Source: Candidatus Woesearchaeota archaeon (GTDB taxonomy: Archaea; Nanobdellota; Nanobdellia; Woesearchaeales; UBA583). From it: a stretch of DNA of 64,000 nt. A program made the translations under genes and the position numbers. The notes beneath the pieces were generated by a model. It did no database searches and was not told the origin of the DNA. It saw only the letters and a program-made list of their open reading frames with translations. The stretch spans positions 1,087,926 through 1,151,925 of the forward strand of contig CP060218.1 in the NCBI GenBank assembly GCA_023898345.1. Reading direction: 5' to 3'. Position 1 is the first letter of the stretch, and every line of letters starts with the position of its first letter. Below, one piece after another: positions 22,398 to 51,547 of this stretch.

Positions 22398-25136
22398 CTA
22401 CTCATAACTAATGCCTTCTTCAAAAAGCTGGAAAACTTCGTCGCCGTTCAAGCTTGTATTCCACACACTGATTTCATCGAGAAGGCAATTCACTTCGTAG
22501 CTGGCTGTGGGGTGGCGGCCAAAGTAAAGCGAAGCTTCGGGGAGTGTATTTTCAGCGCCACTTTTGCTCCCGATAAAAGTGCCGTTAAGGTAGTATTGCA
22601 AACCGGAACTTGTGCTGACGAAGGTGACATGGTGCCAGGTGTTCAATGAGAGTTGGCCAAAGGCATCGTATTCGTATGTCCCGTTTCCAAGCAGCGCATC
22701 TATTGTTCTGTCGCCGGGCCAGTTCAAAACTGTTCCTTGGCCGAGGTATCCGACGTCGGAGTTTGTCACTAAGTATTTGTTGCCGCTGCCGCTGCGAAAG
22801 TTCACCCAAAAGGAAAGTGTTTTGATTGTTCCATTGATGGGAAGATCTAGATAGCTTGTGCCTGATGTTCCGGGGAGGTCAAAGGAGGAGCCGTCAATGC
22901 CCCAACTGTTATAGGTCACGGAGCTGCCTTTGCTGCCGTCATGGTGATAGGAGGAATTGTCGAGTACGGAATTTTCGCCTTTCCAATGACCGAGTAAACT
23001 TGCATTTGCTGGAAGGCCGGAGTTACTTGGTGGTGAGGTTGGTGTGTCAAAGTTTTCCATGCTTGCTGCATAGAGTTGGTAGATGCTGCTTTGGTTAAGG
23101 GAAACACCCCACACACTGATTTCATCGAGAAGGCAATTCACTTCGTAGCTGGGTGTTGGGTGTCTTCCAAGGTAAAGGGAGGCTTCGCTAAGGGAATTGA
23201 TGGCTCCGACTGTTAGGCCTTTGTACGCGCCGTTGAGATAGTACTCTTGGCCTGAGCCTGTGCTGACGAAGGTGACGTAGTACCAGGTGTTCAAAGAGAG
23301 GGTTCCGAAATCATTGAAGGCATATACTCCGTTTCCGAGAAGGGAGTCTATTGTTCTGTCGCCGGGCCAGTTCACAACGGTTCCTTGGCCGAGGTATCCG
23401 ACGTCGGAGTTTGTTACGAGGTATTTGTTGCCGGTGCCGCTGCGAAAGTTCACCCAAAAGGAAAGTGTTTTGATTGTTCCATTGATGGGAAGATCTAGAT
23501 AACTTGTACCTGATGTTCCGGGGAGGTCAAAGGCTGTTCCGAAGGGGCCGGAGGTGGTGTACGTCACGGCTGATCCGAGTGTGGCGCTTTTGTTGTTTGC
23601 TGAACTGTCGAGGGAAGTATTTTCGCCTTTCCAGTATCCGATTAAACCGTAGCTGTTGTTAAAGGGGGAAACTGGGGCAAGTTCTTCTTCGCTTACAAGG
23701 CTGTACTTTTGCGGACAGTCCAAAGCGTTACAGTCGCTTGCACTCACAACAACGAGCCACTGCCCGGACTCGATTTCGCTTGTATTCACGTACACTTGCT
23801 CGACGTTGTTGAGGTGATCGCTTTCGTTACGCCAAGCTTCTCGTGCGGGTGTGTTCGGGTCGAGTGTCCAGGGATAGAATGTTTGTCCGGATGGCGATAG
23901 GAGTTTGAGGTCAAGGTCGTTGATGAGGTTGGCTCCGGGAACGTCGTCCCAAGCTAGCGTTACTTTGAGTGAGCTTTGTGCGCTGATGTTGATTGCGTAC
24001 ACGTCCACGTCAGAGATGTCTGAAATGTTTGCTTCTAGGAATGTTCCGTTGATGATTCGGTCCACAGCTCCTTTGGCGTTGAGTAGTCCGTACCCGTTCA
24101 CGTAGTCGGGGCCGTCGATGATTTCACTCCCGTTGCCGCTACGGTGTAGGTCTGTCGTCGAATCTAGCAAAAGGGCTTTGATTGTCGATGGGAGCGGGTC
24201 TTCGTCGTAGCCGGACTTGTTCCACCGTTCGAGCATAAGCGCGATGGTTCCACTGACGTGTGGCGCTGACATGGAGGTTCCGCTAACAGTTGCATAATTA
24301 TTTGTTCCATTTGTAGTTGTGATTCCATTTCCAGGTGCAACTAAATCAGGTTTTATTCTTCCACCATTTGTTGGACCAAGTCCCGATGTAAAGCTAATAA
24401 CACCACTGTCGTAAACATTACCTACGGAAATGGTGTTTTTTGCAACTGCTTCTGGAGCAATAGTAAAATACCCCGTTGTTAGATTACAGTTTTGAGAATT
24501 ACCAACAGCCCAAACTATTGGAACTTTTCTAGTTGTATAATTTCCATAAACCAATTCATCTATTAATTGAGTAAAAGAATTATATTCTCCCAATACTTCA
24601 CATTGCTTATGTCCATAGGAATTTGAAATTACATTAATACTGTAATTATCAATTCCAGTTTTATAGTTAGATTCTAAGTCATAACTATATCCAAAAGGTA
24701 ATAAATCTTCTTGGTACCCATAAATTTTTGCTTCAGGAGCTACCCCAACATAACTTGAATTTAGATTTCCGTCCCCTATCATTATACCTGCAACCCTAGT
24801 TGCATGGTCTGATGTAGAAGGAGCCAAATTTAAGATTTGTAGTCTAGTTGCAAAATCTGTATGGTTACTCGCAACTTCTCTTTCATATTGTAAAATATTT
24901 ATATTGCTCCCCTGTAAATCATAAGGGTTTTCATAAAGAATAGGAATTTTACTAACATTTTTAGAACTATCTAAAAAATTTTTGCTATTCTGTAATTCAA
25001 CATCAATAAATAATATTTCGTCTGTATTGGATAAGATGAATAATGTTTCTTCATATGTGAGAGAATTTGAAAATGCATTAACTGAAAGTAATAATATCAT
25101 CAGTAATAAAAATTGACTATTTTTAAAATAACTCAT
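22398..25136 (-). CDS. Secreted S8 subtilisin-like serine protease with two C-terminal LamG/concanavalin-like lectin domains
   Basis: Signal peptide, catalytic His (HATRVAGIM) and Ser (GTSMSAPHVSGTIALM) motifs, then two ~190-aa tandem repeats (YLDLPINGTIKTLSFWVNFRSG...CLLDEISVW). The start overlaps the upstream gene by 4 nt. Confidence 0.9.
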   Translation of the reverse strand: MSYFKNSQFLLLMILLLSVNAFSNSLTYEETLFILSNTDEILFIDVELQNSKNFLDSSKNVSKIPILYENPYDLQGSNINILQYEREVASNHTDFATRLQILNLAPSTSDHATRVAGIMIGDGNLNSSYVGVAPEAKIYGYQEDLLPFGYSYDLESNYKTGIDNYSINVISNSYGHKQCEVLGEYNSFTQLIDELVYGNYTTRKVPIVWAVGNSQNCNLTTGYFTIAPEAVAKNTISVGNVYDSGVISFTSGLGPTNGGRIKPDLVAPGNGITTTNGTNNYATVSGTSMSAPHVSGTIALMLERWNKSGYDEDPLPSTIKALLLDSTTDLHRSGNGSEIIDGPDYVNGYGLLNAKGAVDRIINGTFLEANISDISDVDVYAINISAQSSLKVTLAWDDVPGANLINDLDLKLLSPSGQTFYPWTLDPNTPAREAWRNESDHLNNVEQVYVNTSEIESGQWLVVVSASDCNALDCPQKYSLVSEEELAPVSPFNNSYGLIGYWKGENTSLDSSANNKSATLGSAVTYTTSGPFGTAFDLPGTSGTSYLDLPINGTIKTLSFWVNFRSGTGNKYLVTNSDVGYLGQGTVVNWPGDRTIDSLLGNGVYAFNDFGTLSLNTWYYVTFVSTGSGQEYYLNGAYKGLTVGAINSLSEASLYLGRHPTPSYEVNCLLDEISVWGVSLNQSSIYQLYAASMENFDTPTSPPSNSGLPANASLLGHWKGENSVLDNSSYHHDGSKGSSVTYNSWGIDGSSFDLPGTSGTSYLDLPINGTIKTLSFWVNFRSGSGNKYLVTNSDVGYLGQGTVLNWPGDRTIDALLGNGTYEYDAFGQLSLNTWHHVTFVSTSSGLQYYLNGTFIGSKSGAENTLPEASLYFGRHPTASYEVNCLLDEISVWNTSLNGDEVFQLFEEGISYE

Positions 25137-28558: not shown

Positions 28559-30874
28559 TTACAGTGTTCCTGAATCTCGCTTTTGTATTTTTTCTTCTTC
28601 GATTCTTGCAAGTTCTTTCTTAATGTATCGTTTGTACCAGTCTTCAAACTCGCTAAAGATTTGTCGTGGGTCGAGATGTCCTAGTTCGTCATTTACTTTC
28701 TCTGCTATTTTGTGAAACATATCGTTTGCATCAAGAACACATTGTGCTTCGAGAAGTGAGGGAAGAAGGAATTTGGCGGCGCAGTCTACTTGTAATTGCT
28801 TTATTCTTGAACGAAGTCGAATGTTCTCCCAAATGGCATCCCAGTTTCCCGCAAATTGTTTGACGTTTGCTCCTATTGCTTTGAGGATGTCGGATTCTCC
28901 ATTAATGAGTTCGTCAGAAATTTCTAGTTTGTCGGTCTTTGAATTATACTTGAAAAGATCGGAGAACCCTCCTTCTAATAATGGGTCGTTATCCCACTTT
29001 TTTCTTACTTCTGTTATTTGGGTAATTCTTCTTACTCTGTGAAGTCCATCGGCACTTTTTACGGGGTTTGCAACTACGATGATGTCTGTTGCTTTGAAGG
29101 AGGTGTTTGGAACTTTAAGATCATTCACGAGTCTGTCGTACACACCAAAGGGACTGTCTCCGTGGATGGTTCCTGCTACGACGTTTGCTAAAGCTCCGAC
29201 ACGCATGGCTTCGTACAGTGCCAGTGCTTCTGTCGAACGAACTTCTCCTACGATAAGACAGGAATCTCCTAAACGAAGTGTACTACGAATTCCCATGTCA
29301 GCGCTCATTCCTTCTTTGGACACGGAAAGTGCGCTTCGTACGCTTAGTGCTTGAAGATTGTAACCTAATTTTGAAAATTCAATTGAGGGTAATTCTAAGG
29401 TGTCTTCAACGGTTATGATTCTGTACTTTCTCATTATCTCCAATATGATTGCTGTTAAAAATGAGGATTTTCCTGAACCTCTTGTTCCTGCTATTAAAAT
29501 GGTTCTTGCTCCATCTACAATAAAACTCAAGAGTCCTGCTGCCTCTGCACTGATCATTCCATTTTTTATGAAAAGCGGCAAAGTCCAGGGTTTGTTTCTG
29601 TGGCGTCTGAAGGAATAACCGATTCCGTAGGGATTGAGTGGTTTTCCAACAGCTGAAACACGCGCTCTGGCAGTTGGCGTCTGAATTTCTGTATCGAGAA
29701 GAGGATTTGACGCGTCAAGTGGTTTTCCGGACATCATTCTCAAACGTGATGCCCAGCCGTCTACTTCATCTTGCTCTGGAATAATATTTGTTCGACAATC
29801 TTCGTAGTCAGAATGTGTCAGAAAAATGGGAGTTTTGTTTGCTGGCGAATTGACGCTAATGTCCTGCACTTTCTCATCATCTAGCAAAACTTCAATTGGC
29901 CCAAAACCGACAGTGTAACGAATGAGTATGTCGGCTAGTTCTTCGAGCTCTCTTTGGCGTAGTCGTACTCCTTTGAAATCTGCGATTTCTTCAATGAGAT
30001 CTCTTGAGATATTGTGAAAAATTTCTCGCAGTCTTTCTGGATCAATAAAATCATTTGATTCTGGTTGGTGTTCTGCAATGACTTCTTTTGCTAAGTTTAA
30101 AATTCCGTACTTTTCGTCACTTAGCATAAACTCTGTTGGCGTCAAATGATAGAGGTTGTTCGCTTCTTTGTCGAGCTCGAAGATGGTTACTTTGCCGTGG
30201 GGGAGTGTGTAGGAGTCTAATTCTTTTGCTTCGATGGGGTAACGTTTGAGCAGGGAGGTGTAAATAAAATTTGGCTTGATGTTGGCTGAAAAAAAATCTT
30301 TGTAAATATAGCGCGATCCAATTTTGTGTCCGGACAAATGTGCTTTTGTTTTTCGTACGATTGTTAGGGTTTCAACTCTCATGAGCAAATAGCCAAGTGC
30401 AGCTTCGTACTTGTTGTCTACTTCTGCACAACGTTGTTCTGAATTTTCTTTCTCGAACTTGTAGTCTCGCAAACGGCGTTTCAAAGAAACATAGGTTCCG
30501 ATGGGATCAGAGGGGAAATCTTTGAGGATGAGATTTTGTAGTTCGGCGTACCTGTTGAAAAAAAGTTTAATACAAAAATCGTCTTTGGAACTTATTTCAC
30601 TTGGAGAGAATAAATCTTTTTGTTTTGTAAGATGAAGAAAGAGACGAGAAACTTCTTTGAGGAGTTCAACTTGCTCATTGTTGTACTCGTAGTTCTTGTT
30701 GTGGATGAGAATTATCTTTGTCGTGGATGGCATGGCGATTAACTTTGTAATGATGTCTCGCATAACAAAGCCGTTGTCCTCAATCGAAGGAAAATTTTCT
30801 TTTCCTAGGTAATTTATCTTTAAAATGGACTCTACACCGTGTTTTACGAGCTCAAAGTCCTTTCTTTCAAACAT
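28559..30874 (-). CDS. Type IV pilus/archaellum-family secretion ATPase (FlaI/PilB/VirB11-like) with long N- and C-terminal extensions; orphan (no adjacent platform gene)
   Basis: Walker A IAGTRGSGKSSFLT. Paralogous to 57875..59599 (shared ...RLGDSC.I.GE.R..EA..LYEAMRVGA..NVV.GTIH.D...GVYDR.VNDL). 771 aa versus about 550 typical. Confidence 0.85.
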   Translation of the reverse strand: MFERKDFELVKHGVESILKINYLGKENFPSIEDNGFVMRDIITKLIAMPSTTKIILIHNKNYEYNNEQVELLKEVSRLFLHLTKQKDLFSPSEISSKDDFCIKLFFNRYAELQNLILKDFPSDPIGTYVSLKRRLRDYKFEKENSEQRCAEVDNKYEAALGYLLMRVETLTIVRKTKAHLSGHKIGSRYIYKDFFSANIKPNFIYTSLLKRYPIEAKELDSYTLPHGKVTIFELDKEANNLYHLTPTEFMLSDEKYGILNLAKEVIAEHQPESNDFIDPERLREIFHNISRDLIEEIADFKGVRLRQRELEELADILIRYTVGFGPIEVLLDDEKVQDISVNSPANKTPIFLTHSDYEDCRTNIIPEQDEVDGWASRLRMMSGKPLDASNPLLDTEIQTPTARARVSAVGKPLNPYGIGYSFRRHRNKPWTLPLFIKNGMISAEAAGLLSFIVDGARTILIAGTRGSGKSSFLTAIILEIMRKYRIITVEDTLELPSIEFSKLGYNLQALSVRSALSVSKEGMSADMGIRSTLRLGDSCLIVGEVRSTEALALYEAMRVGALANVVAGTIHGDSPFGVYDRLVNDLKVPNTSFKATDIIVVANPVKSADGLHRVRRITQITEVRKKWDNDPLLEGGFSDLFKYNSKTDKLEISDELINGESDILKAIGANVKQFAGNWDAIWENIRLRSRIKQLQVDCAAKFLLPSLLEAQCVLDANDMFHKIAEKVNDELGHLDPRQIFSEFEDWYKRYIKKELARIEEEKIQKRDSGTL

Positions 30875-34647: not shown

Positions 34648-35928
34648 ATGGAAAAAAATACGCAAAGAAAAAAACTGGACTTTGGAACTTTTTTCAAAAG
34701 TTTTCTTGGTCTTTTTGTACTGCTCAGTTTTGCACAAGTTAGCTTTGCAGATCTGCAATTGAACTACATTCACTTTGACCCTGCAATTATTTCTGCAGGA
34801 GATGAGGTTGACATTGTTATTCAGTATGAAGCTCAAAATGCTCCTTTTGATTCTAGTAAAATTGGAGACGACGAGTATAGTTTCAATGTTAAGCTTGAAG
34901 CTGACGACGACCTTACGGAGAAATATATTTTAATTACGGACAGTAGGGGCGACGATGTTAAGGGAACTTTGTACTCTGGCGAAAAATACTATAAAACTTT
35001 TAAGGTTAAGGTTCTCAATAATGCTCCTGCTGCAAACTACGAATTTAAACTTGTTGGACAGTGGTACAAAAATGGAAATGCTCTTGATTACACTGAGGAG
35101 CTGACTTTTGAAATGCCTGTCAAAAAGGAAGGAATTATTTTGGATATTTCCAGCATAACGACAAATCCTAATCAGGTTCGTCCGGGCGACAAGTTTGTCG
35201 AACTGTACACTTCTTTGGAAAATGTCGGCGAAAAAACTGCGAAAAATATTAAGGTGAAACTTAGTGCTCAAGAAGGAATTGATCCTAGCTATTCTGATAA
35301 TAATGAATTGTCTGTTGGAAAATTAGCGTCTCAAGAATCAAAGGATATTGACTTTACAATTAATCTGGATGACGAACTTAAAGCTGGCGAATACACTTTG
35401 ACGTACACGCTTGAGTATATGGACTTGGATGATAATTCGTACACGCTTGAGAAAAATATTTCTTTGCTTGTGAAAGAAAAACCTAATCTTGTTATTGAAA
35501 AGGTCGAAGGTGAAGGACTTGCTGGTTCTAGCTCAACCCTAAAGGTTTGGGTGAAGAATGTCGGTGAAGAGAGTGCTGAAAGTGTTGATGTGAGAGTCTT
35601 AAAACAAAGTTCTCAACCTTTTGAATTTGACTTTAGAAGTTCTTTCATTGGTGAACTTGAACCTGGTGAGACTGGTCTTGCTGTGTTTGACATTGATGTT
35701 CTGGACAGTGCTGACATTAAGGCTCATGATTTAAAATTGGTCTTGAGGGCAAAGGGAGACACTGACGAGGGTGACGACAATATTTACACGTTCAATCGGC
35801 GTGCGTACTTTACGGTAACGGGTGTGAAACAGAACTCGTATGTGTATGTTGGTCTTGGACTCTTTGCTCTTTTGGTCATTGGATTTTTAGTTAAGGGGAG
35901 GAAAAAGAAACATGAAGGAAAAAAATAG
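34648..35928 (+). CDS. Secreted CARDB/S-layer-domain-like protein with C-terminal TM anchor
   Basis: Signal peptide, repeated beta-rich ~100-aa modules, and a C-terminal VYVGLGLFALLVIGFLVKGRKKK anchor. It starts 3 nt after the RND genes. Confidence 0.55.
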   Translation: MEKNTQRKKLDFGTFFKSFLGLFVLLSFAQVSFADLQLNYIHFDPAIISAGDEVDIVIQYEAQNAPFDSSKIGDDEYSFNVKLEADDDLTEKYILITDSRGDDVKGTLYSGEKYYKTFKVKVLNNAPAANYEFKLVGQWYKNGNALDYTEELTFEMPVKKEGIILDISSITTNPNQVRPGDKFVELYTSLENVGEKTAKNIKVKLSAQEGIDPSYSDNNELSVGKLASQESKDIDFTINLDDELKAGEYTLTYTLEYMDLDDNSYTLEKNISLLVKEKPNLVIEKVEGEGLAGSSSTLKVWVKNVGEESAESVDVRVLKQSSQPFEFDFRSSFIGELEPGETGLAVFDIDVLDSADIKAHDLKLVLRAKGDTDEGDDNIYTFNRRAYFTVTGVKQNSYVYVGLGLFALLVIGFLVKGRKKKHEGKK

Positions 35929-36488: not shown

Positions 36489-37778
36489 TCAACTCCAAGA
36501 TGCTAAAGGCGCATAATCATACGTTGTTCCTGTTACAAGAAAGGAACTGGGATTAGTACAGACAACATATGACCCACGAGTTTCGTTTGTAAGACAGGGC
36601 CCAAAACTTTCATAATAATTTCCAATATTATAAGCTCCAACTGAATAATTATAAGAAAAACTACCTGCGTAATTAGTAGTAGAACTATCAAAATAATTAT
36701 TATAAAATGAATTATTGTTGCCATTGCCAGAAGCATGATATTTCCCTGAAGGGGTGTTTGTTATAATACTGTTTCTTACCTGATTATTGTCCGTGCCTGA
36801 AAAAATATCTATTGTTCCATCATTGAAGACATTTGAATTATTATCAAACACAACAGTATCAATAAGATTATTATCTGACCCTGAGAAAATAGTTATACCA
36901 TTATCATGATTATGGGATAATTGTGAATTTCTTAAAATATTATAATTAGAATTTATCTCAAAGGAAATTCCATCATCATATCCAGAACCTAAGGCATTAT
37001 TTGTATTATAGTTTGAAATTATGCCATCAAATAGGTTATAATTGCTATTGACTAACCTAATTCCACCACCATTATTAGAAGTACTAGTGTTTAGGACAGA
37101 ACAATTATCTGCAGCATTCATGTAAATTCCATCATCAAAACCACTGATGTCACAATTTTGTATTGTAATTCCATCAAAGCTGTTTATGTAGAATCCAAAT
37201 CCACTTGTATCCCCATCTCCAGTTATAGAGTAGCCCATACAATCAAAGGTTAGATTCCCTGTTGAGAAAGTAAAGCAATTGCCATCTTGATTTGAAATAG
37301 AATTCATCAGGTAAACTTTAGAGTAATTTTCTAGTGTTGATGCACTAATATCTCCACAAGCACTTACACTTACATAATCTATTATAATTCTTTCCAGAAA
37401 AAAACTCTTCTCAACAATGGAGTTCTCTGTCACTAACACGACTGAGTGAGTAGAACTATCCAAACTTTCTAAACAAGTAGCTACATCAATTTCAGTTATC
37501 CCCGTATTTACTGTCGTATTTAACCCGCAATCAACTCCTCCAATTTCTATTCTATAAATTGTCAGATTATCTTCAATACTTTTTACATATAGACTCTCCC
37601 CAAATAAATTTTCAATAAAAAGACTTCCACTTGCTGACCCTGCAGTTCTCTCAATACTACTAGTACTACTTGAAAAATATTGGTTAAACCATCCCTGAAA
37701 GCTAAGAATTCCCAATGTAGTTACCAGAATTACCAATATTGTGGCTATGATTGGACTTATTGCCTTTTTCTGGGACAT
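36489..37778 (-). CDS. Pilin-like surface protein: archaeal class III signal peptide plus parallel beta-helix domain
   Basis: N-terminus MSQKKAISPIIATILVILVTTLGILSF (archaeal type IV pilin / flagellin N-terminal motif), followed by N/G/S-rich beta-helix-like repeats (NNLIDTVVFDNNSNVFNDGTIDIFSGTDNNQVRNSII). Confidence 0.7.
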   Translation of the reverse strand: MSQKKAISPIIATILVILVTTLGILSFQGWFNQYFSSSTSSIERTAGSASGSLFIENLFGESLYVKSIEDNLTIYRIEIGGVDCGLNTTVNTGITEIDVATCLESLDSSTHSVVLVTENSIVEKSFFLERIIIDYVSVSACGDISASTLENYSKVYLMNSISNQDGNCFTFSTGNLTFDCMGYSITGDGDTSGFGFYINSFDGITIQNCDISGFDDGIYMNAADNCSVLNTSTSNNGGGIRLVNSNYNLFDGIISNYNTNNALGSGYDDGISFEINSNYNILRNSQLSHNHDNGITIFSGSDNNLIDTVVFDNNSNVFNDGTIDIFSGTDNNQVRNSIITNTPSGKYHASGNGNNNSFYNNYFDSSTTNYAGSFSYNYSVGAYNIGNYYESFGPCLTNETRGSYVVCTNPSSFLVTGTTYDYAPLASWS

Positions 37779-37894: not shown

Positions 37895-38157
37895 TTTCTT
37901 TCTTAAAAAAACTCAGGATTCCCTAAGCTTACCAAAGGATATGTCGGAACCAAAACCGCTGCCAGCATAAAGAATATCACCATTTGAATCAATATCTATC
38001 CCACCTACCCCCGAAGAATTTGTTAGAAAAACAGTCTTATTCCAAATTTGATTTCCATATACATCGTATTTAAAAATCGTCCCTAGCCAATTAACCGCTC
38101 CACCAATATACAAGTAATTATTATGGTATTTAACTCTAAAAAAGGTTGAATTCATTG

Positions 38158-39110
38158 GTGTGCTAAGACATAATTGATGAACGCTTAAAGTTTTGGATGT
38201 ATCTTTCAGCTGGAACTTTATAGTAAATCCCTTGATGAATTCGTTTCTCGTTATAAAAGGCAATGAATTCATCGAGAGTATTAAACCTTTCGTCGAATTC
38301 TAATTTGTAGGTTCCAAACCATCTTTCTACCTTCCCATTTGTTTGTGGGTGATTCACCCTGCCCAGAATGTGCTTAATGCTATTCTGGTTACAAAATCGA
38401 GTAAAATTATGTTTTGGATCACCTCGATTCTGAGTATTTGTGAAATGAGTTCCATTGTCTGTAAGTATCTCTTTGGGCTTGCCAGATTTGGCAATCGCAT
38501 TCTGGAATGCCAGAATAGTGTTTTCGGTTGTTGCATTTTCGAAGTATTCTGCATGAATAAGAAAACGAGAATAATCATCTAGAAACGCAATGATCTGTTT
38601 ACCTGTAAATGGGCATTGTGACCAGTCTGTGTGCCATAATTCGTCTTTAGAGCTACGCTCATATCTGACGAACTTTATTTGCTCAGGACGAGTTCTCTTG
38701 TTTAATTGGAGACTGTTCTTTTTCAGAACTTTCTGTATTTGGCGTTCGGAAACTCCAAACCCTTCTTCATCAAGAAGAAGCTTGATTCTTTGTGACCCCA
38801 TTTTGTATTGCTTCCAGATTTTGACAACTAAGTCTTGGAAGCTTTGATTTATTTCTTTTTCTTTTGGACCTCGTTTCTGAGGCTCAACAAAAGTCGCACC
38901 ACGTCTCTTGTATGCTTCAAACCAAGAGCTAAGAGTAGATTTTGGAACTTCTCTGGTCTTTGAGAGATAAGAAAGAGAATACCAACCTCCTTCAAGAGTT
39001 TTCACACAACGAAGTTTGAACGTTTGATTGTATGTTTTTTGTTTCATTTCTCAAAATAACGAGAAATTCATCAAAAAAGGAGGCGTTCAATAATTATGTC
39101 TTAGCACACT
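38158..39110 (-). mobile_element. IS481-family insertion sequence (~953 bp) with 24-bp terminal inverted repeats
   Basis: Left end tgtgctaagacataattgatgaac matches the reverse complement of the right end gttcaataattatgtcttagcaca (1 mismatch). Flanking near-duplicate ttgaattc(a/g)ttgg (putative target-site duplication). Single DDE transposase ORF inside. Confidence 0.85.
38163..39047 (-). CDS. DDE transposase, integrase-core (rve) domain, IS481 family
   Basis: N-terminal HTH, then catalytic D (HTDWS), D (LTDNG) and E (TNGKVER) with typical spacing. The ORF ends 5 nt from the IS terminus. Confidence 0.85.
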   Translation of the reverse strand: MKQKTYNQTFKLRCVKTLEGGWYSLSYLSKTREVPKSTLSSWFEAYKRRGATFVEPQKRGPKEKEINQSFQDLVVKIWKQYKMGSQRIKLLLDEEGFGVSERQIQKVLKKNSLQLNKRTRPEQIKFVRYERSSKDELWHTDWSQCPFTGKQIIAFLDDYSRFLIHAEYFENATTENTILAFQNAIAKSGKPKEILTDNGTHFTNTQNRGDPKHNFTRFCNQNSIKHILGRVNHPQTNGKVERWFGTYKLEFDERFNTLDEFIAFYNEKRIHQGIYYKVPAERYIQNFKRSSIMS

Positions 39111-40406
39111 TGAATTCGTTGGCAGACTTATATTAAATATCTGATTTCCATCAGGATCAAACTTCATAAGAAGCCCTACGGTCTCAGTAAATGTGGGATT
39201 AAGTGAGTAGGCCACAGCGTAAACATTTTCTTGATTATCTAATGTAACATCCCATGCACAGTCATAATAATCTAAGAAGAAGAGCTTTGCACTATAATTC
39301 CACACCTCAGAACCTGTGGAATTGAATTTTACTACAAAGCTCCGATTCCCTAAATTATCTTTGTGACCTACAGCATAAATCTCTTCTTGTGAATTCACTT
39401 TAAGACCCCAAAGTAAAGCGTTCTTAGTGGCCTCAGTATAATTTTTTTCCCAAATAAGGTTCCCCAATAAATCATACTTTGCCAAAAAGATTCCCCCACT
39501 ACCACCAAGGTAGCCTCCCACGTATACAAAGTCATTTCTGACGTCTATTGCAGTCCCATAAGTATTTACCCCCTGATAATTGAAGTATGGTCCTGATCTT
39601 GACCCCGAAGTATTGTATCTTGCCCACGCAAGTTTGAAAACGCCTGCGTCAAATAATATTCCTACAACATAGGCATCATCATTATACACTTTTATCCCTT
39701 CTGTCCCTTCATAATAAACTCCATTTGAAATTAGATCATTCCACTCATAACTTCCATTTGATAAAAATTTCACGGCATCCCAATCCTGATTATTTGAAGC
39801 TGATCTTGGTCTTGATGCCATGTACACGTCATCATTGGAGTCAACTGCAAGACCTAATACATCGTCGCTGTACGTTCCCTGATCATAAGTATTTACCCAT
39901 ACTTGAGAGGGCATTTTCACATGAACAGCATTCAAATCTATAAAGTATTCCTTTGAAAGTATGTTCTTTTCAGTAATCATGCTAATTTCTATTTTCTCCT
40001 TATTTACTCTCTTAATGCAGGAACTGATGTCCATATTAGTGACTCCCAAATCTAATTCCGTAGAAGGCACGCAAGGTTGACCATTTATCAAAAGTTCTTT
40101 CATACTCTCATTTGTAGTTCCCTTATTGGTGATGTACAGCTCTGCCCCGACTAAATTCTCAATGTCAAGGTTGTTTGTCGATGCTGTTTTTGTCTCAAGG
40201 TCAGAGTGAATCCCTGTAGATAGGGAAGTGAACCATATTTTAAAGCCCACAACTGCTGCGATGGTGGCAACCAATAAAAGGGCAGTTCCGATTATAGGAG
40301 AAATAGCTTTCTTTTTCTTCATCTGAGTCTTTGGGAATATTTTTTATTTACATATTCTTTTAATTACTTGCCAAGGACATCTTTCCCACCTGTGAGTCTG
40401 CTCACA

Positions 40407-41736: not shown

Positions 41737-41832
41737 TAATGGTTAAATAATTTGAAAGATGATAACAACAAGTCCTCAAATTTGAGATTTTTCCAACCTG
41801 ATCTTTTGAGAAGATTAAATAAACCAAATAAA

Positions 41833-41975
41833 GTAGAGAAATCGCTAAGATTTTCCTATCTCAATCAGAGCAGAACTCAGGACATTACTGCAATTTTCAA
41901 GACACGAGTTCTAACTCTCAGCGAGATGGTCGCACAGTGCTGCGGAACATAATGGCCAGCTAGGGAATTAAAAAT
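41833..41975 (+). repeat. REP-A long form (divergent)
   Basis: gtagagaaatcgctaagattttcctatctcaatcagagcagaactcaggacattactgcaattttcaagacacgagttctaactctcagcgagatggtcgcacagtgctgcggaacataatggccagctagggaa. Confidence 0.75.
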
Positions 41976-42171
41976 CGAAATTTTTCGAAATTCTCTATTT
42001 AATTATACTTAAGTCTGTTGCATAATCCTTAGATAAAAATTAAGACTTTTAAATCTGAGATTTAAAGTGTATAATAAAATGACATCTCCCATGTCGTTAC
42101 ACACCTGTTTTTACTCTGAAGTTATGCAGTTTTTACTGATAAACTTTTAAATAAGCTTTGCCTTGCTTTTC

Positions 42172-43140: not shown

Positions 43141-44589
43141 TTACCTTTGTGCGTACTTGAGGACAAGATAAGGATAAATCCCTCCAACGTCCATGTACCC
43201 TGCGACATAGATATTGCCTGAGCTGTCAAGTTCTATTCCTGTCATCCATTCATCATTTCCACTATCATAGGTTACATTCCAAATTTCATTTCCATTTGTA
43301 TCATATTTCACAAGTAGAGTGATAGCAGTAGTTGAGGCCCCAACGACATATACATTCCCCAAATTATCAATTACAATCTCATTTCCCCATTCACCATTTC
43401 CTGAGTCATAAGTTACATTCCAAATTTCATTTCCGCTAGAGTCATATTTGAATGTTATGAAGTCATCATTTGCTCCATTATTTGTCCCTCCCGTTATATA
43501 CACATTTCCTAAGCTATCAACAGTAACTCTGTTTCCCCATTCACTATTTCCTGAGTCATAAGTTACATTCCAAATCTCGTTTCCGCTAGAGTCATATTTG
43601 AATGTTATGGCGTCATAATTTGCTCCATTATTTGTCCCCCCCGTTATATACACATTTCCTAAGCTATCAACAGTAACTCCATTCCCATACTCATCACTTC
43701 CACCGTCATACGTCACATTCCAAATCTCGTTTCCGCTAGAGTCATATTTGAATGTTATGAAGTCATCATTTGCTCCATTACTTGAATATCCACTTACGTA
43801 GATATCTCCCTTTGGACTAAGTGCAATTGAGGAGGTATCATCATAATTTCCTCCATCATACGTCACATTCCAAATCTCGTTTCCGCTAGAGTCATATTTG
43901 AATGTTATGAAGTCATCATTTGCTCCATTATTTGAATATCCACTTACGTAGATATCTCCCTTTGGACTAAGTGCAATTGAGGAGATATCATCATAATTTC
44001 CTCCATCATACGTCACATTCCAGAGTTGCTCCATGTTGTTATCATATTTAGCTACGAGAAAATCAGAGTCTCCATTATCAATCCCTCCCGCTAAGTATAT
44101 ATTTCCTTCTGAATCAAGTGCTAGATCATAAAACCAAACATTATTGCTCAGATCTGGCGATTTGTTCCACAACAGTACGGGCATAAGTTCGTGGCTTTGG
44201 TATTGTTCTTTTACAAAGAACTTCTTGCTATAAATTCCTTTATCTGTAAATACTGCTACTTCAACAGAGTTGCCACTTGCATTAAGACAAGAACCCAAAT
44301 CAAATATGTGTAACCCTGAAAAAATACCTGTTGAAAACTCGCAGTCAGTTCCTGAGGCTTTCACATTAGAGACTGCTGTTCCTGTTCCTGCTTGAAAAAA
44401 GAGCTCGTCGCCAACGAGATCGACAATCCCCACACTTTGGCCGCTTGCTGTGTCGGACTCGGCTTTTGCGAAAAGAGCAGATCGAAAGGAATCAAACCAG
44501 CTACTGAAAAAAATGACTGCGACAACAGCAACGACAAGAAGTAGGGCAACGGCAATGACGGGAGAAATAGCTTTTTTTGGCGAGCGCAT
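43141..44589 (-). CDS. Pilin-like adhesin: class III signal peptide plus about 8 SBBP beta-propeller repeats
   Basis: MRSPKKAISPVIAVALLLVVAVVAVIFF, then ~41-aa repeats (YDSSGNEIWNVTYDGGN.DD.SSIALSPKGDIYVSGYS.NGANDDFITFK). Four units are near-identical at the nucleotide level. Confidence 0.75.
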   Translation of the reverse strand: MRSPKKAISPVIAVALLLVVAVVAVIFFSSWFDSFRSALFAKAESDTASGQSVGIVDLVGDELFFQAGTGTAVSNVKASGTDCEFSTGIFSGLHIFDLGSCLNASGNSVEVAVFTDKGIYSKKFFVKEQYQSHELMPVLLWNKSPDLSNNVWFYDLALDSEGNIYLAGGIDNGDSDFLVAKYDNNMEQLWNVTYDGGNYDDISSIALSPKGDIYVSGYSNNGANDDFITFKYDSSGNEIWNVTYDGGNYDDTSSIALSPKGDIYVSGYSSNGANDDFITFKYDSSGNEIWNVTYDGGSDEYGNGVTVDSLGNVYITGGTNNGANYDAITFKYDSSGNEIWNVTYDSGNSEWGNRVTVDSLGNVYITGGTNNGANDDFITFKYDSSGNEIWNVTYDSGNGEWGNEIVIDNLGNVYVVGASTTAITLLVKYDTNGNEIWNVTYDSGNDEWMTGIELDSSGNIYVAGYMDVGGIYPYLVLKYAQR

Positions 44590-44745
44590 GTTTGGAATGA
44601 AGAGAAACACTATTTATACTTTTGTTTGGAGCTTGAAGAAGTGAAGCTCTTTTTTTCTTGAAACGAACGGTTCTGTCCATAATTTTATTTTGAAACATTT
44701 TAAGATAACTATTTTTAGTCAAAAATAAATCTCTTGTTAGCAAAA

Positions 44746-44890
44746 ATAAAGAAATCGCTAAAATGTGCCTATCCCAATCGGAGCAGAGCTCCGGGGCATT
44801 ATGGCAATTTTCAAGACGCGATTTCTTTACTCCCAGTTGGGTGGTCGCAGCAGAGCTGCGGGGTATAAATACCCAGCTAAGGAATTAACT
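44746..44890 (+). repeat. REP-A long form (reference copy): 5' module, internal perfect hairpin ccggagcagagctccgg, inverted copy of the 5' module, then tail
   Basis: ataaagaaatcgctaaaatgtgcctatcccaatcggagcagagctccggggcattatggcaattttcaagacgcgatttctttactcccagttgggtggtcgcagcagagctgcggggtataaatacccagctaaggaa. gtaaagaaatcgc and gcgatttctttac form a 13-bp inverted repeat. Confidence 0.85.
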
Positions 44891-44969
44891 TTTAAAATTG
44901 ATTTTGAATTTATGGACAGAGCCAAACGAACGGTATTTTTATAAATTCTTTTCCTGTTGTGTTGTTACC

Positions 44970-45713: not shown

Positions 45714-45901
45714 TCTCGCCTCTGGCATTTTCAAAAATATTTTCTTTTTTAGTTTTAAGTAAATGGTGTTCTCGAAGTAAAAAACTTCTGCGACTATACA
45801 TAAAATTTAGAGATTTTTACTTCGTTACAAGATCTTGTGCATTCTAAAAGTAATTTCTGGGAGACCTGTTTAAAATTACTTTTTCGTAACAAAATGCCTT
45901 A

Positions 45902-46180: not shown

Positions 46181-49100
46181 CTAAAACTCATTGACATTGC
46201 GTCGCTTGTACAGATAAACTACGATAAGTCCAATGCCTACTACAACCAAAATTAAAAAGAGAACTGTCCATGTCGCTGGAGTAAATATCTGCCCAAAATA
46301 CTTTTGTTTCTCTCTTTCATCAGTTTCTGCTTGTTCTTCTGCTGCAACTTGCGCTGCGGCAAGTTCTTGCACCTCACTCACAACAACACTGTCGACAGGA
46401 CGCAAAGAGTAGTAATAGTTCCCATCACTCTCTTCCACAAACTCAGACAAATATTCCTTGCCACTAAGCTCATCATAAACAACAAAACTTTCATCACTGA
46501 GTTTTTCATCAACATAATACAACTCAGTATACGTTCCTGAAAGCTGAGTCTGATATCGCTTGCTACTGACAATTTGCAAGTCTAATTTTTTTGCATTTAA
46601 TTTACGATTACTGTCCTCATCGCCAGAAACAGTACACGCCCGAGTTTGAGTTTCAACATCAACACAAGCAGCACTGTCAGTGACAAGGCGACTTTGTTCT
46701 CCATTTACACAAACACTCCACTGACCATACTCAAAAGAAGAAACACAACTCTCAGTTCCAGTTTCATTACCCAAAATCTCAGCAAGTTCTACAAGGTCAG
46801 AACTCTTCTTCTTCTTGGAGTTACTACTACCTCCACCGCCGCCGCCAGAAGAACTACTACTACCACCAGAAGTACTGGAAGAACTCACCTCAACAATCGT
46901 GTACTCACTCCAGCTTGTAACCGTAAAGCTAAGACTCGTCCCATTTGCAACAATCTCACTACAAACAGACGAAGGACAATCAACACCGTCGCGCTGCACT
47001 TTGTACTTACTGTAACTAATATTATGCAAAGTGAGACGAGCAGAAACATTAAACTCAGGAAGAAGGAAAGAGTCAAGACTAGCATGACCAGCACCAACAG
47101 AAATTTTGTCTCGAAGATCAAGTGTTCTCTCAATCTTCAAAGGAGAAAGAAAAGCAATCTCACCATATTGGTTTGAAAAGATTGCATCGCCCACAGAAAG
47201 AAGTTCACTAGAGTTCAAAGCACTAAAGTTTGTCGTACGACTCATGTTCCAAGTGCTAGCATTAAAAATAACTTCAACAGTGCCAGGCTCATCAAAAGAG
47301 TCAGTTGTAAACACAAGATCATAACCGGAACCCAAACTATTTCCAGCAAGATCAGTTCCTAAGGCGGACAAATGGAAATGGTACGTAGTCTCGTACTCAA
47401 GATCGACAGCAGGAGAAAGTTTCAAACTTCGCGATGCGTTGTCGTAGCTCGAACTAAAAGCAACACCCTCATCATTTGTCACAGATAAAGTTCCAACAGA
47501 CATTGCCTCACTAAAGGTAAAGTAGATGTCTGAACTAATCGAAACGTTGCTTGAACCGTTGAGAGGAGAAGTACTAATGAGCTGAGGAGAAACAGTATCA
47601 ACATATGCTGTACGAAAACTTCCGACGACAAAACCTTTGTTCCCGGACTGGTCAAGAGAACTAAGTTTGTAGTAATAGAGAGTATCTGAATCGAGAGCTG
47701 TTACACTGACGCTGTGCGAATCACTAAGACTACTTGAAAGACTCGTATTTTTTCCATACGAACTACTTAAACCATATTCAAGATAACTTTGAGAAGGTTC
47801 ATCTGTCCACCAACTCACAGTTGCATTTGTACTGCCAACTGCCACTTGGACGTCATACAGAACTGGTGCGGTAACGTCAGAACTGGTAACTACAAGTTCA
47901 CTTGGGGAATCAGTTCCGGAACTGATACTGCTACTCACATTCTCAGAGAGAACGGCGACAAAATAATACTCGGGATTACCTGCTGTACAAATTCCAAAGA
48001 GATTACCGTCGCATTCCCATTCTGAAATCCAAGAAGCAAGTGCTTGATTGCCCGAGAATTGCGTACTCAGTGTCATAACAGTTGTATCAAGTAGGTCATC
48101 TTCGTAAATCGTAATGGTAAGGGATTTTCCGTCACAGTTCGTTCCGCTGACAATTGCTTCAACTTCTTCTCCATCTTGAGCAAGAAGGGAAGACCAAGAG
48201 GCAGAACTTAAATGACAGGAGGGAACGCTTCCAACGGAAAAGGAGATTTGGTAGTCATCGGGATTGCGATTACCAGAACTGTCGGAACACTTCACATAGT
48301 ACGAGTAACTTTGGCCGTCACTGAGGCCGGAAACCAAGGTGCTGTGTGAGAAAGCGCCTGTGCTAGAAAAGGGAATCATTGTGCTATAACTTGTTCCGGA
48401 AACGGGGGAATACCGACAGGTAGCAGCTTCATTGCTTGTCACTTGTAATGTGATTTGACTTGTTCCTGCTGCAAGTTGCCCGCTTGGAGAGCCGCCACTT
48501 AGGAGGGCTGGACTCACATCAGGAGTTAAAATGTCGAGGTAAAAAGACATGGGGCCTTGGTTTCCTGCAGCATCGTATGCTTGAACGGAGTAGCTGTAAA
48601 AGGATTGTTCGGTGACGGTGGAATCCACATACACGGGGTTAGTGCTTATGCCAATTTGGCTAGTCGGTGTACATTCTTGACCGCTGCAACGGTAAATGCG
48701 ATAAGAGCTTACTCCGACGTTGTCGCTGGCAGCGGACCAGGACAGAGTAACTGAACTTCCAGTAAGGGAGGTGTTCGTAAGCCCCATAACTTGGGACGGA
48801 GGGGTTGTGTCAACTTCTGTCTGGGAAGCTTCTGTCGTAATCCCCACAATAGAAGAATACGAGCCATTATTGCCACTAGCATCAATTGCGCGAACACGAT
48901 ACCTGTAACTGATGCTTGCCGCCACAGTAGTGTCTTCAAATGAAAGGCTGCCTGTATTTCCTATTAACACAAAATTAGAACAACCACTACCAGTACAACG
49001 TTCAATTTCATAGTTCACAACTCCAACATTATCACTAGCTGCCAACCATGTCAAACCGACATTACTAGAAGTCACTTCACTTGCAACTAAACCACTTACT

Positions 49101-51454
49101 TGAGAAGGGGCCTGTGTGTCTTCACTGTTATTACTTTGACTTTCATTATCATCACTAACCACTACAATTTCAGCAAGCCATAAAACACTTGCATACTTTA
49201 CATTTCCTTCTCCTGCAGCCTGATACAAACGCAAGATCTTTGTCGATGGCATGGCACTTACATTAATTATGCTGCTTGGAACATCATTCGAACCCCCAAT
49301 AGTTGTAAACGTTTGAAACGCACTGCCATCAAAATATTGAATCTGCAATGTCTCAGGCTGCATGTAATAATTTCCATTATTATCACCCCAGTATATAGTA
49401 AGACTACTAAGATTCATACTTGTATTAAACTCAAGTTCAACCCAATTTGGGTTACTAATGTTCTGTGCAGAAGCCCATTCTGTTTGAATATCTCCATCAA
49501 TAAGATGAGACAAATCATAGGCATTATCATTGTAGGTACTGTCAACACGAACAGTAAGTGAAATATTGTTATCCACCACACTAATATTCTCCTCTCCTCC
49601 ACTTTGTTCAGCTAGGGTAGAAACTGAAAGGGTAGTAGAATTTGCAGTATTGCTTGCTCCGTCGTAAGCCTGAACATAATAACTGTAAGTAGTATTGGCA
49701 TTCAAACCTGTGCCATTATAGTTTGTCCCCGTGATAGTTCCGACTAAGCTTCCATCACGAAATACCCTATAACCAATAACTCCAACATTATCAGTTGAAG
49801 CAGACCATGAAAGAGAAATAGAATCCACTGTTTGAGAAGGACTATTCAGATTAGCTGGAGCCGTTGGAGATTCGGAATCATTAGAAACGCCTCCCCCACT
49901 AGAGTTCAAATTTATCTCAGCTCCTTTCTTCCCATAGTATTGAGTATACGTTCCAGCCAATCTACCTTGACTGTCCACTGCTTGAGTACTACTTAATAAA
50001 AGAAGGTTAGGTTCATGAATTGAAGTAGAGATATCCTCATCCCAACTATTAAGGCTTTGCGTATTATATGCTGTTATAACATTACCATCAGTCATATAAT
50101 CTTCATTGCCTCTAAAACGCAGAATGGTCGCACCACCTCCTGCAAATGTATTTCTATAAAAATAATTATTTGTAGTCGTTCCTACATTTTCCATAGAAGC
50201 AAGAAAAATCCCCGCGGTATCATCAGTCTTTATAGTATTGTAAGAAACTTCATTGTAGCCAGAATAATCAGCAATCGTATTTCCAATAGCAATCTGATAT
50301 CCTATAGTATTACTAAAAAAATTATCCCTGATGGTCACATATCTTCCCGTATATTTCATCCATAATCCATACCCGGTCTCACTATTCTCTCCTCTGTTTC
50401 CCTCAACTATTACATAATCGGTATCATAGAGATCTACATAATGTCCATTCCCTCCGTTCCTGTTACTAATATTTGTCAAAAGATTATCACTGTATAATAT
50501 ATTCTGCTTGTAAGCAGTAGTCTTACTTAAAAAAACGGTTCCTGTATTGTCGTTACCCGCAGTACCTGGACCCAGATTTGTAAAATGATTTCTCCACCAT
50601 GAAGCTCTATTGGAAACACCTGTCACCCAAAAATAATGTGCATTCGCCACATCCTGTCTTCCATTAGTAAACGTTAGATCAGCAACAAATATGTCATCCA
50701 TATTGCTTTGAACCATAATTTTCGCCTTCGAAGCATCTATGACTGCAGTTTCCCCCGGATAACCAATCAAAGTTCTTGTTTTAGAATCTTCTTCTAGACG
50801 AACGTTATAATTATTAGCTGAACTTCCTATTAATTCATACTCTCCACCTCTAAACACAATGATCTTATCATGATAAGTATTATCAGAAGCATCTCCTTTG
50901 TACCAATCTGAAATATCTTCTAGTGGCTGAGTAATTGTCCCCACCTTTGTTCCTGAATAACCGTCCTCAATAAAAACAAATTTAGAAGCATCAACCGTTA
51001 CAGACCAATTAACGTCAATTATATTATATTCTTGATCTGTAACTCGTACTACAAAAGTGTAGGTTCCAGAACTAGGAGGGTTCCAGCTGACTACCCCATA
51101 TTCCTCAGTTCTTGGAATTGTTCCAATTGAAGCACCACTTGGGCCAGAGAGAATCTCATAACTAAAAGGCCAAGACCCTCCTTGAATACCTATTGGAATT
51201 TCATAGGGCATATCAGGATGGGCAAATTTATGCCTTGCATGAATAGAAGTTTCATCATCCGGTCTTGGATACACAACATGCATTGGTATCTTTGCAGGAA
51301 TAAACTCTCCCGAACTTAATTTCCACAAACTTTCGTCAACAGCAGCAAAAGAAGTGCTGCTCAAAAAAGCTATGAATAGCAACAACCAAGAACATAGATG
51401 TAACAATTTTTTTCTTGACTTTAAGGAATTTCCTAGTGTGAAATTATACCCCAT
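46181..51454 (-). CDS. Giant cell-surface protein (about 1757 aa): signal peptide, parallel beta-helix, FN3 domains, discoidin (F5/8 type C)-like domain, Ig-like domains, Gly/Ser linker and C-terminal TM anchor
   Basis: Signal LLHLCSWLLLFIAFLSSTSFA. Beta-helix repeats (NNYFYRNTFAGGGATILRF). FN3-like SPSQTVDSISLSWSASTDNVGVIGYRVFRDG and TWLAASDNVGVVNYEIERC...YRYRVRAIDASGN. GS linker SSSSTSGGSSSSSGGGGGGSSNSKKKK. Anchor VLFLILVVVGIGLIVVYLYKRRN. Start taken at ATG 51454 (MGYNF...). Confidence 0.8.
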   Translation of the reverse strand: MGYNFTLGNSLKSRKKLLHLCSWLLLFIAFLSSTSFAAVDESLWKLSSGEFIPAKIPMHVVYPRPDDETSIHARHKFAHPDMPYEIPIGIQGGSWPFSYEILSGPSGASIGTIPRTEEYGVVSWNPPSSGTYTFVVRVTDQEYNIIDVNWSVTVDASKFVFIEDGYSGTKVGTITQPLEDISDWYKGDASDNTYHDKIIVFRGGEYELIGSSANNYNVRLEEDSKTRTLIGYPGETAVIDASKAKIMVQSNMDDIFVADLTFTNGRQDVANAHYFWVTGVSNRASWWRNHFTNLGPGTAGNDNTGTVFLSKTTAYKQNILYSDNLLTNISNRNGGNGHYVDLYDTDYVIVEGNRGENSETGYGLWMKYTGRYVTIRDNFFSNTIGYQIAIGNTIADYSGYNEVSYNTIKTDDTAGIFLASMENVGTTTNNYFYRNTFAGGGATILRFRGNEDYMTDGNVITAYNTQSLNSWDEDISTSIHEPNLLLLSSTQAVDSQGRLAGTYTQYYGKKGAEINLNSSGGGVSNDSESPTAPANLNSPSQTVDSISLSWSASTDNVGVIGYRVFRDGSLVGTITGTNYNGTGLNANTTYSYYVQAYDGASNTANSTTLSVSTLAEQSGGEENISVVDNNISLTVRVDSTYNDNAYDLSHLIDGDIQTEWASAQNISNPNWVELEFNTSMNLSSLTIYWGDNNGNYYMQPETLQIQYFDGSAFQTFTTIGGSNDVPSSIINVSAMPSTKILRLYQAAGEGNVKYASVLWLAEIVVVSDDNESQSNNSEDTQAPSQVSGLVASEVTSSNVGLTWLAASDNVGVVNYEIERCTGSGCSNFVLIGNTGSLSFEDTTVAASISYRYRVRAIDASGNNGSYSSIVGITTEASQTEVDTTPPSQVMGLTNTSLTGSSVTLSWSAASDNVGVSSYRIYRCSGQECTPTSQIGISTNPVYVDSTVTEQSFYSYSVQAYDAAGNQGPMSFYLDILTPDVSPALLSGGSPSGQLAAGTSQITLQVTSNEAATCRYSPVSGTSYSTMIPFSSTGAFSHSTLVSGLSDGQSYSYYVKCSDSSGNRNPDDYQISFSVGSVPSCHLSSASWSSLLAQDGEEVEAIVSGTNCDGKSLTITIYEDDLLDTTVMTLSTQFSGNQALASWISEWECDGNLFGICTAGNPEYYFVAVLSENVSSSISSGTDSPSELVVTSSDVTAPVLYDVQVAVGSTNATVSWWTDEPSQSYLEYGLSSSYGKNTSLSSSLSDSHSVSVTALDSDTLYYYKLSSLDQSGNKGFVVGSFRTAYVDTVSPQLISTSPLNGSSNVSISSDIYFTFSEAMSVGTLSVTNDEGVAFSSSYDNASRSLKLSPAVDLEYETTYHFHLSALGTDLAGNSLGSGYDLVFTTDSFDEPGTVEVIFNASTWNMSRTTNFSALNSSELLSVGDAIFSNQYGEIAFLSPLKIERTLDLRDKISVGAGHASLDSFLLPEFNVSARLTLHNISYSKYKVQRDGVDCPSSVCSEIVANGTSLSFTVTSWSEYTIVEVSSSSTSGGSSSSSGGGGGGSSNSKKKKSSDLVELAEILGNETGTESCVSSFEYGQWSVCVNGEQSRLVTDSAACVDVETQTRACTVSGDEDSNRKLNAKKLDLQIVSSKRYQTQLSGTYTELYYVDEKLSDESFVVYDELSGKEYLSEFVEESDGNYYYSLRPVDSVVVSEVQELAAAQVAAEEQAETDEREKQKYFGQIFTPATWTVLFLILVVVGIGLIVVYLYKRRNVNEF

Positions 51455-51547
51455 GGGTTTTTTATTAAAAAGCACTATATAAATTCTTTTCACTCGAAAA
51501 TTGACCAATTTGGTGAAACCTAGCACTCGATTGCACAAAACAAAGAG

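Follow-up and report, generated by a model that had tools for sequence, protein, structure and literature searches.

Modular type IV pilins are widespread in bacteria (PMC8179133), and in archaeal type IV pilus (T4P) loci large proteins with class-III signal peptides have been proposed to act as adhesins or minor pilins (PMC4858521). Beta-propellers, in turn, are continuously amplified from single blades, and the repeat counts of such genes are possibly unreliable in assemblies (PMC9218822). Here we analyze a gene whose product adds a member to both of these known groups, as a modular pilin that carries an SBBP propeller amplified in part. The gene occupies 43141..44589 on the minus strand of a 64,000-nucleotide (nt) stretch (hereafter, “the window”) from a Candidatus Woesearchaeota archaeon (GenBank assembly GCA_023898345.1, contig CP060218.1, positions 1,087,926 to 1,151,925), has its stop codon at 43141-43143, and encodes a pilin-like SBBP propeller protein of 482 amino acids (aa). 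A first-pass annotation of the sequence had considered the large size of the pilins in this window unusual; this does not hold, since both modular type IV pilins and large adhesin candidates with class-III signals have been described (PMC8179133, PMC4858521).

The gene contains a strong intragenic tandem repeat. Our favored explanation, to which we assign a probability of roughly 0.7, is that each repeat encodes one blade of a seven-bladed SBBP propeller, which forms the C-terminal head of a type-IV-pilin-like surface protein in this member of the Woesearchaeota (DPANN). DPANN archaea are presumed to live in attachment to hosts, through molecules of which little is known. With 12 pilin-like proteins headed by SBBP propellers, and others that carry different heads, this ~1.5-Mb genome offers concrete adhesin candidates.

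Repeat units and propeller blades

Three methods agree on the period of the array. Tandem Repeats Finder (TRF) reports a tandem array with a period of 150 and 3.7-4.1 copies (score 682), a separate repeat search detects four copies of 150 nt at 43391-43990, as well as six that are in register at 150-nt spacing, and in an autocorrelation over lags 100-199 lag 150 alone stands out, with 62.5% matches. The first-pass annotation had correctly located a strong tandem repeat at ~43380..43990 in this minus-strand gene, as TRF and the repeat search both show, but its dimensions were misjudged: the 123-nt period given there is 150 nt by all three methods, the unit of ~41 aa is 50 aa (the consensus peptide quoted with it also has 50 residues), and the unit starts listed (43384, 43507, 43690/43730, 43855) are not periodic. 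One repeat unit of 150 nt, or 50 codons, is entirely coding and corresponds to one propeller blade. No open reading frame (ORF) of 80 aa or more runs opposite the repeats.

We set the unit boundaries at the conserved tryptophan of each blade, which yields seven units, all on the minus strand. U2 (43873-44022) pairs with U3 (43723-43872) and U4 (43573-43722) with U5 (43423-43572), and these are flanked by the more diverged U1 (44023-44169), U6 (43282-43422), and U7 (43144-43281). U2 and U3 are identical at 148/150 nt (98.7%; 96% in amino acids), and both of their differences are nonsynonymous (I/T, N/S). U4 and U5 are 86.7% identical in nucleotides and 86% in amino acids, their codon differences consisting of 8 synonymous and 7 nonsynonymous changes, and units compared across the pairs (U2/U3 versus U4/U5) are 70.7-72.7% identical in nucleotides. 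The idea of four near-identical units at 90-98% thus applies to U2/U3 only. The median blade identity in the 482-aa protein is 44%. What marks a recently amplified propeller, near-identical consecutive blades in both protein and DNA, is found in this gene, and the amplification is local rather than global.

Identity is also mosaic within units. Units of the U2/U3 type and of the U4/U5 type share 46-47% identity in their central 70 nt, whereas an 80-nt module, NGANDDFITFKYDSSGNEIWNVTYD, composed of the 63-nt tail of one unit and the 17-nt head of the next, is 88-100% identical over U2-U5. The module has therefore been homogenized or else co-duplicated several times, and as a result the array holds exact direct repeats of 75, 55, 53, 51, 45, and 40 nt. 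The two copies of the 75-nt repeat are at 43856-43930 and 43706-43780 (span 43706..43930, minus strand), and those of the 40-nt repeat are at 43640-43679 and 43490-43529 (span 43490..43679, minus strand). Read as a history, this pattern would make the step from U2 to U3 a very recent duplication of one blade and the U4/U5 pair the outcome of an older duplication or unequal crossover, with the mosaic recording earlier unequal exchange and the 80-nt module homogenized across four blades. Amplification by single blades is the normal way for propellers to grow, in agreement with earlier work (PMC9218822, PMC6805158).

A second long assembly, GCA_020637525.1, carries the identical 482-aa gene. Its contig JACJVU010000001.1 is 99.85% identical to the window over 12,963 nt, and 19/19 mismatches fall within 44671-47885, with none inside the gene. 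Both long assemblies therefore give seven blades. One could still suppose that the repeat in the window was over-expanded during assembly and that the true gene has five blades: repetitive propellers are difficult to assemble (PMC9218822), and the sole other allele, described below, does have five. We regard this as extremely improbable, as the paralogs also have seven blades, the four units are all distinct (2 to 44 differences per 150 nt) and so are no stutter of a single unit, and the two assemblies, which differ at 19 sites elsewhere, show no difference in the gene itself.

Two side observations concern these assemblies. The 3.2-kb stretch that holds the mismatches spans a Band_7 gene, a repeated intergenic element, and the 3′ end of a gene for a giant surface protein, the other ~9.7 kb being identical; the 839-kb contig of GCA_020637525.1 ends within that giant gene (46181..51538). 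Separately, U4 contains a run of seven Cs at 43636..43642 (G7 on the coding strand, ACG GGG GGG ACA) in a genome of 37% GC, at a position where U5 has GGGAGGG. The run could be a frameshift-prone site, and the window and GCA_020637525.1 are identical there.

A propeller-headed pilin-like protein and its paralogs

In profile searches with the 482-aa protein, Pfam PF06739 (SBBP) scores 87.7 bits against a cutoff of 20.5 (E=4.7e-25), TIGR02608 (delta-60 repeat) 77.8 bits against 76.5, and TIGR02537 (archaellin/type IV pilin N-terminal domain) 26.4 bits against 20. The LipL53-family equivalog NF047494 scores 116.6 bits, below its cutoff of 400, which places the protein outside that family. An AlphaFold2 (AF2) model, built on a multiple sequence alignment of 36 sequences, has a mean predicted local distance difference test score (pLDDT) of 87.9.

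The predicted class-III (prepilin-type) signal peptide and hydrophobic N-terminal helix are encoded at 44491..44589 on the minus strand (MRSPKKA/ISPVIAVALLLVVAVVAVIFF, where the slash marks the predicted cleavage site). The motif KKA/ISPVIAVALLLVV has the form seen in archaeal pilin-like proteins, that is, a short charged leader, [KR][GA], and then a hydrophobic helix. In the AF2 model the helix comprises residues 10-49 and is followed by the globular part of the pilin module, a beta-sandwich with strands over aa 54-125 (44215..44430, minus strand), by a linker of low confidence (aa 126-137, with pLDDT < 50 at residues 128-133), and by a seven-bladed SBBP beta-propeller (aa 138-482; 43144..44178, minus strand). 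The propeller has 28 strands over residues 138-480, mostly with pLDDT > 90, which corresponds to seven four-stranded blades (7 × 4). Two proposals of the first-pass annotation are borne out here: an SBBP beta-propeller with one blade per unit, by PF06739 and by the structure prediction, and a pilin-like N-terminus, by TIGR02537. As modeled, the protein is a modular pilin with a pilin module (10-125), a linker (126-137), and a propeller head (138-482). Its N-terminal 140 residues give weak sequence matches in the PDB to the archaeal filament subunits 8fk7 ‘flagellin’ and Iho670. A GTG at 44610, upstream of the ATG, is probably not the start.

Taken together, these features suggest a course of events in which the gene would be transcribed from its own TATA-box promoter, a prepilin peptidase would cut the class-III signal peptide after K-A (MRSPKKA/ISPV...), and the hydrophobic helix and beta-sandwich would serve as a membrane anchor or would put the protein into a type-IV-pilus-like filament or at its tip, with the propeller displayed as a ligand-binding head (adhesin or lectin-like). 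A displayed ligand-binding head on a pilin-type anchor is most likely what the protein provides, and we infer its processing, localization, and ligand alike.

A different function is raised by the structural comparison. Foldseek against the PDB ranks the propeller of the Friedel-Crafts alkylase CylK first (E=2e-24), followed by NHL domains and seven-bladed lectins, and on the strength of that top match the propeller might be a CylK-like enzyme, or part of a secreted non-adhesive protein, rather than a filament adhesin. We find this very unlikely. The sequence identity to CylK is only 20-23%, the N-terminal domain that supplies half of the CylK active site is absent and a pilin module stands in its place, the further fold matches include lectins and NHL binding domains, and the genomic neighborhood is rich in surface proteins. 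A displayed, adhesin-like head remains our preferred reading of the propeller.

Each blade carries a W-N-x-S/T sequon (WNVT or WNKS) at the same position (aa 142, 191, 241, 291, 341, 391, and 438), apparently on the outermost strand. Nine homologs from archaea were checked (P0002-P0008, P0018, and the Methanococcus maripaludis protein P0051), and each has 5-8 such sequons; five bacterial SBBP homologs have 0. These motif counts suggest that one N-glycan per blade may be an archaeal feature. P0051, a 432-aa protein of a genetically tractable species, is a possible experimental proxy for a propeller head with a sequon in each blade.

The protein belongs to a sizable family. At least 12 SBBP-pilin genes are present in the ~1.5-Mb genome (GCA_020637525.1): 2 in the window, 4 in a region that we call L006, 2 in L015, and 4 in L017, the last three being regions of that assembly. 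L006 consists of four tandem paralogs (geneA to geneD) ~58 kb from the window gene, beside an M24 peptidase gene. Disruption affects 4/12 of the family: geneA, geneB, and two genes hit by an insertion sequence (IS). GeneA (L006 6888..8346) is frameshifted at ...SSGNVYV/NRFFR-stop, and its other frame runs on through blade 7 to ...KYAQK-stop; geneB (L006 8467..9905) is broken into four ORFs. Both may be either pseudogenes or the products of assembly indel errors. GeneC in L006 corresponds to P0003, and geneD, also in L006, to P0016, which is truncated and adjoins another IS. Seven blades are found in ten full-length or repairable members, including the window protein (win482), P0002-5, P0007-8, the fourth intact L017 gene, whose blades were counted from its seven W-N-x-S/T motifs, and geneA, whose blades were counted after repair of the frameshift.

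Within the window, the first-pass annotation had listed three pilin paralogs. All three are indeed pilin-like, but the one at 36489..37778 (minus strand) combines the common N-terminal architecture with another head, a C-terminal right-handed beta-helix (NosD/Beta_helix), and the one at 39087..40322 is a piece of an SBBP-pilin paralog that an IS has split. This paralog extends over 37913..40322 (minus strand) and measures ~481 aa once the IS is removed; the 411 aa listed earlier cover 39087..40322 only, and the reading resumes in 37913..38157 beyond the IS. The IS (38158..39109, ~952 bp) has an rve transposase gene at 38163..39047, 38-nt terminal inverted repeats, and flanking direct repeats (caaCgaattcaa/caaTgaattcaa). 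A relative of it with 67% nucleotide identity abuts geneD in L006, and a degraded copy (84-88%) is present in L015. A second pilin-like gene with a non-SBBP head (473 aa) is found in L017.

The family shares a conserved 5′ module (44165..44646, minus strand) that comprises the promoter region, signal peptide, helix, and beta-sandwich and ends at HELMPVLLWN. The alignment of all four L006 paralogs with the window gene starts exactly at 44646. Over the module, DNA identity to the window gene is ~93-96% for L006 A, C, and D, 87% for L015, and ~69% for L017. For geneC and geneD the similarity falls beyond ~44165, and geneA and geneB are 76-80% identical over the entire gene. Judging from these alignments, the 5′ modules appear to be kept similar while the propellers diverge across the family. 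Inside the module, 22-29 nt upstream of the ATG, lies a TATA-like box (TATAAATA, 44611..44618, minus strand), which suggests a separate promoter for each paralog and an mRNA with a short leader or none. A silent-cassette model of the pilE/pilS kind, with one expression site, was rejected because the promoter-containing module is present in every paralog; a promoter in every copy points instead to a multigene family.

A possible five-bladed allele in a metagenome-assembled genome

The top database match is P0001, 382 aa long and encoded by a contig of 7,596 bp (L001) in a ‘Nanoarchaeota archaeon’ metagenome-assembled genome (MAG), GCA_020430405.1, from a strain that is 99.4-99.9% identical in the flanks. 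P0001 equals the window protein minus exactly 100 residues, and its DNA shows two separate in-frame 150-nt deletions relative to the window gene, the first mapping to the 75-nt exact repeat of U2/U3 (43706..43930) and the second to the 40-nt exact repeat of U4/U5 (43490..43679). The rest of the P0001 propeller, 531 nt, has 0 mismatches to the window gene, and the next 3.2 kb of L001 downstream of the propeller are 99.44% identical to the window. The unit of P0001 that we call B is an exact chimera of a U4 head and a U5 tail, with 0 mismatches, and from this it follows that the change ran from seven blades to five. A scenario in which five blades are ancestral and the longer gene arose by duplication was rejected, as it would require at least 8 extra changes compared with the exact B-unit chimera. 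The chimera also tells against over-expansion in the window, since it means that the two parental units existed.

On its 5′ side the contig follows another locus. L001 1-3662 matches the M24-peptidase side of geneA, ~58 kb from the window gene in the other assembly, at 99.945% identity, and the L001 5′ module is that of geneA (2 differences) up to a switch, beyond which the sequence is window-identical. Variable sites in a six-sequence alignment place this switch from a geneA-type 5′ module to a window-type propeller within 44164..44187 (~24 nt, minus strand). There are thus three L001-specific junctions (L001 4121-4147, 4378-4454, and 4478-4521), and all three fall within short exact repeats. 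L001 can be wholly spelled from reference k-mers at k≤23-25 only; novel k-mers appear from k=27 at the module junction, from k=43 at the U4/U5 junction, and from k=77 at the U2/U3 junction.

A rival reading, close to the idea of the first-pass annotation, is that the gene encodes a recombination-driven variable adhesin, in which the inter-blade repeats and the shared 5′ module would delete or duplicate blades and swap heads between loci in vivo, and the diversified surface would serve host attachment or evasion of viruses and hosts. We think this unlikely. P0001 differs by exactly two in-frame 150-nt deletions, in the 75-nt and 40-nt repeats, and is free of mismatches over 531 nt; however, it is one variant only, on a short MAG contig of 7.6 kb, with all three anomalies in repeats. 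Its 5′ module and 3.66 kb upstream come from geneA (99.945%) with one clean switch, yet that switch sits in the last informative interval (~24 nt) of a ~540-nt shared module, where a graph path leaves the collapsed repeat and where we estimate that a uniformly placed crossover would land ~4% of the time, and the gene orientations imply a circle or a tandem-duplication junction rather than a simple deletion. For two of the junctions, reference k-mers suffice only up to k=25 and k=41, and the U4-head/U5-tail chimera fixes the direction of change, seven blades to five; on the other side, the window and GCA_020637525.1 both have seven blades, and a second short relative, the three-bladed P0009, looks like a collapse. 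The AF2 model of five-bladed P0001 is confident per residue (pLDDT 87.2), but its predicted template modeling score (pTM) is lower, at 0.65. The mosaic identity in the array is evidence of past intragenic exchange, and the similarity to paralogs C and D falls sharply at the module boundary, whereas a promoter for each paralog leaves no silent-cassette logic and in-frame units give no on/off switching. This last point also disposes of the on/off form of the phase variation that the first-pass annotation had thought plausible: units of 150 nt, in frame and within the coding region, cannot switch the gene.

P0009 is encoded on a contig of 1,053 bp, both ends of which lie in sequence shared with paralogs, and is 92-94% identical to geneA without blades 2-5; its three blades would be unable to form a propeller alone, and it looks like an assembly collapse. 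P0001 and P0009 are both singleton clusters in a collection of 15 billion proteins, from which the window protein is absent by exact look-up. Exact-sequence look-up finds the window protein in GCA_020637525.1 only. Among the GTDB representative genomes scanned, the best relatives are Thermoplasmatales proteins at 35-39% identity, with no close one, and the JGI metagenomes scanned hold no relative above 56%. A literature search on the assembly and run accessions gave no match.

For P0001 itself, the evidence is equally compatible with real recombination and with collapse or chimerism in short-read assembly, and we place the chance that it is a genuine allele somewhat short of even. The broader proposition, that the 12 SBBP-pilin genes are a recombining adhesin repertoire in which the 5′ module is the homology handle for head swaps, the inter-blade repeats change blade number, and P0001 is a genuine product, strikes us as rather improbable. 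Blade deletion through exact repeats is mechanistically possible, and the sister strain may be a case of it. The earlier suggestion that the repeats are recombination hotspots is reasonable insofar as the long exact repeats are possible substrates, and weak insofar as the sole variant may be an assembly collapse. A comparison of related strains, likewise, gives one allele without two units alongside two long assemblies that both have seven blades. Variation in blade number is plausible, and programmed or high-frequency variation is unproven.

Several points weigh against our favored explanation of a seven-bladed head on a type-IV-pilin-like surface protein. Next to the gene we identified neither a prepilin peptidase nor a platform protein, and the only T4P-type parts nearby are a T2SSE-type ATPase (~13 kb away) and a DUF2341 protein. 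Moreover, two of the three P0001 junctions are novel already at k≥27 and k≥43, which makes a simple de Bruijn traversal at the usual k an unlikely source of them, and P0001, if real, could mean that the locus is actively recombining rather than quiet.

Either outcome for P0001 would be of consequence. If the five-blade hybrid allele is real, the family would illustrate how archaeal surface proteins swap heads and change their number of blades, and if not, the case is a warning that short-read MAGs collapse and chimerize such genes. Should the recombining repertoire prove true, it would amount to strain-level surface variation relevant to host attachment.

Genomic surroundings and comparison with known systems

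Surface and secretion genes are abundant around the SBBP-pilin gene. They include genes for a DUF2341 protein of 1,059 aa (17705..20884), a domain that in archaeal T4P loci is associated with adhesins of the PilY type (PMC4858521), a subtilase that bears laminin-G domains (22398..25136), a T2SSE-family ATPase of 771 aa (28559..30874), a CARDB protein (34648..35928), and a giant surface protein of 1,785 aa with fn3, F5/8-type-C, and Big_5 domains (46181..51538).

The window also contains a conserved intergenic element of ~150 nt, with full copies at 44740-44890, 45898-46050, and 41829-41978 (minus strand) and a partial copy at 11791-11923. The element combines a longer closing stem with two short GC hairpins (CGCAGC-TCT-GCTGCG and CCGGAGC-TCT-GCTCCG). 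The Band_7 gene immediately upstream of the SBBP-pilin gene has a copy on either side. An Rfam search with the element returned nothing meaningful; it could be a miniature inverted-repeat transposable element (MITE), a small RNA, or a regulatory element.

Several described systems resemble the window gene in part. The modular type IV pilins, such as Streptococcus sanguinis PilB and PilC (Raynaud et al. 2021, PMC8179133), likewise consist of a pilin module, a linker, and a functional domain, with predicted display by a type IV filament. Their heads are vWA or ConA-like, whereas the window protein is archaeal and, judged by its sequence, has a TIGR02537-type N-terminus and an SBBP propeller head; the census in PMC8179133 covers bacterial IPR012902 proteins only. 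Amplified propellers (Pereira and Lupas 2022, PMC9218822; Afanasieva et al. 2019, PMC6805158) likewise have adjacent blades that are near-identical in nucleotides, and a blade number that can change. The window gene differs from them in that only 2/7 blades are near-identical, the amplification is local, and the host protein is pilin-like; the term SBBP has 0 occurrences in the main text of PMC9218822.

Among SBBP/delta-60 surface proteins, the Leptospira LipL53 lipoprotein family and P0051 of Methanococcus maripaludis share the repeat family and its 50-residue blades. P0051 is highly repetitive and has 8 blades with a W-N-x-S/T sequon in each, like the window protein, but carries an ordinary Sec-type signal peptide in contrast to the class-III signal of the window protein. 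The PilY1/PilC tip adhesins also have a C-terminal beta-propeller adhesin part tied to type IV pili. PilY1 differs in being no pilin itself and in having a propeller of another family (IPR008707). Finally, bacterial tandem-repeat contingency loci and size-variable surface proteins have, as here, long exact intragenic repeats and, as in P0001, an allele that differs by whole units; the window gene departs from them in that its units are in frame, with no on/off switch, and each, instead of serving as a spacer, builds one structural blade of a closed fold.

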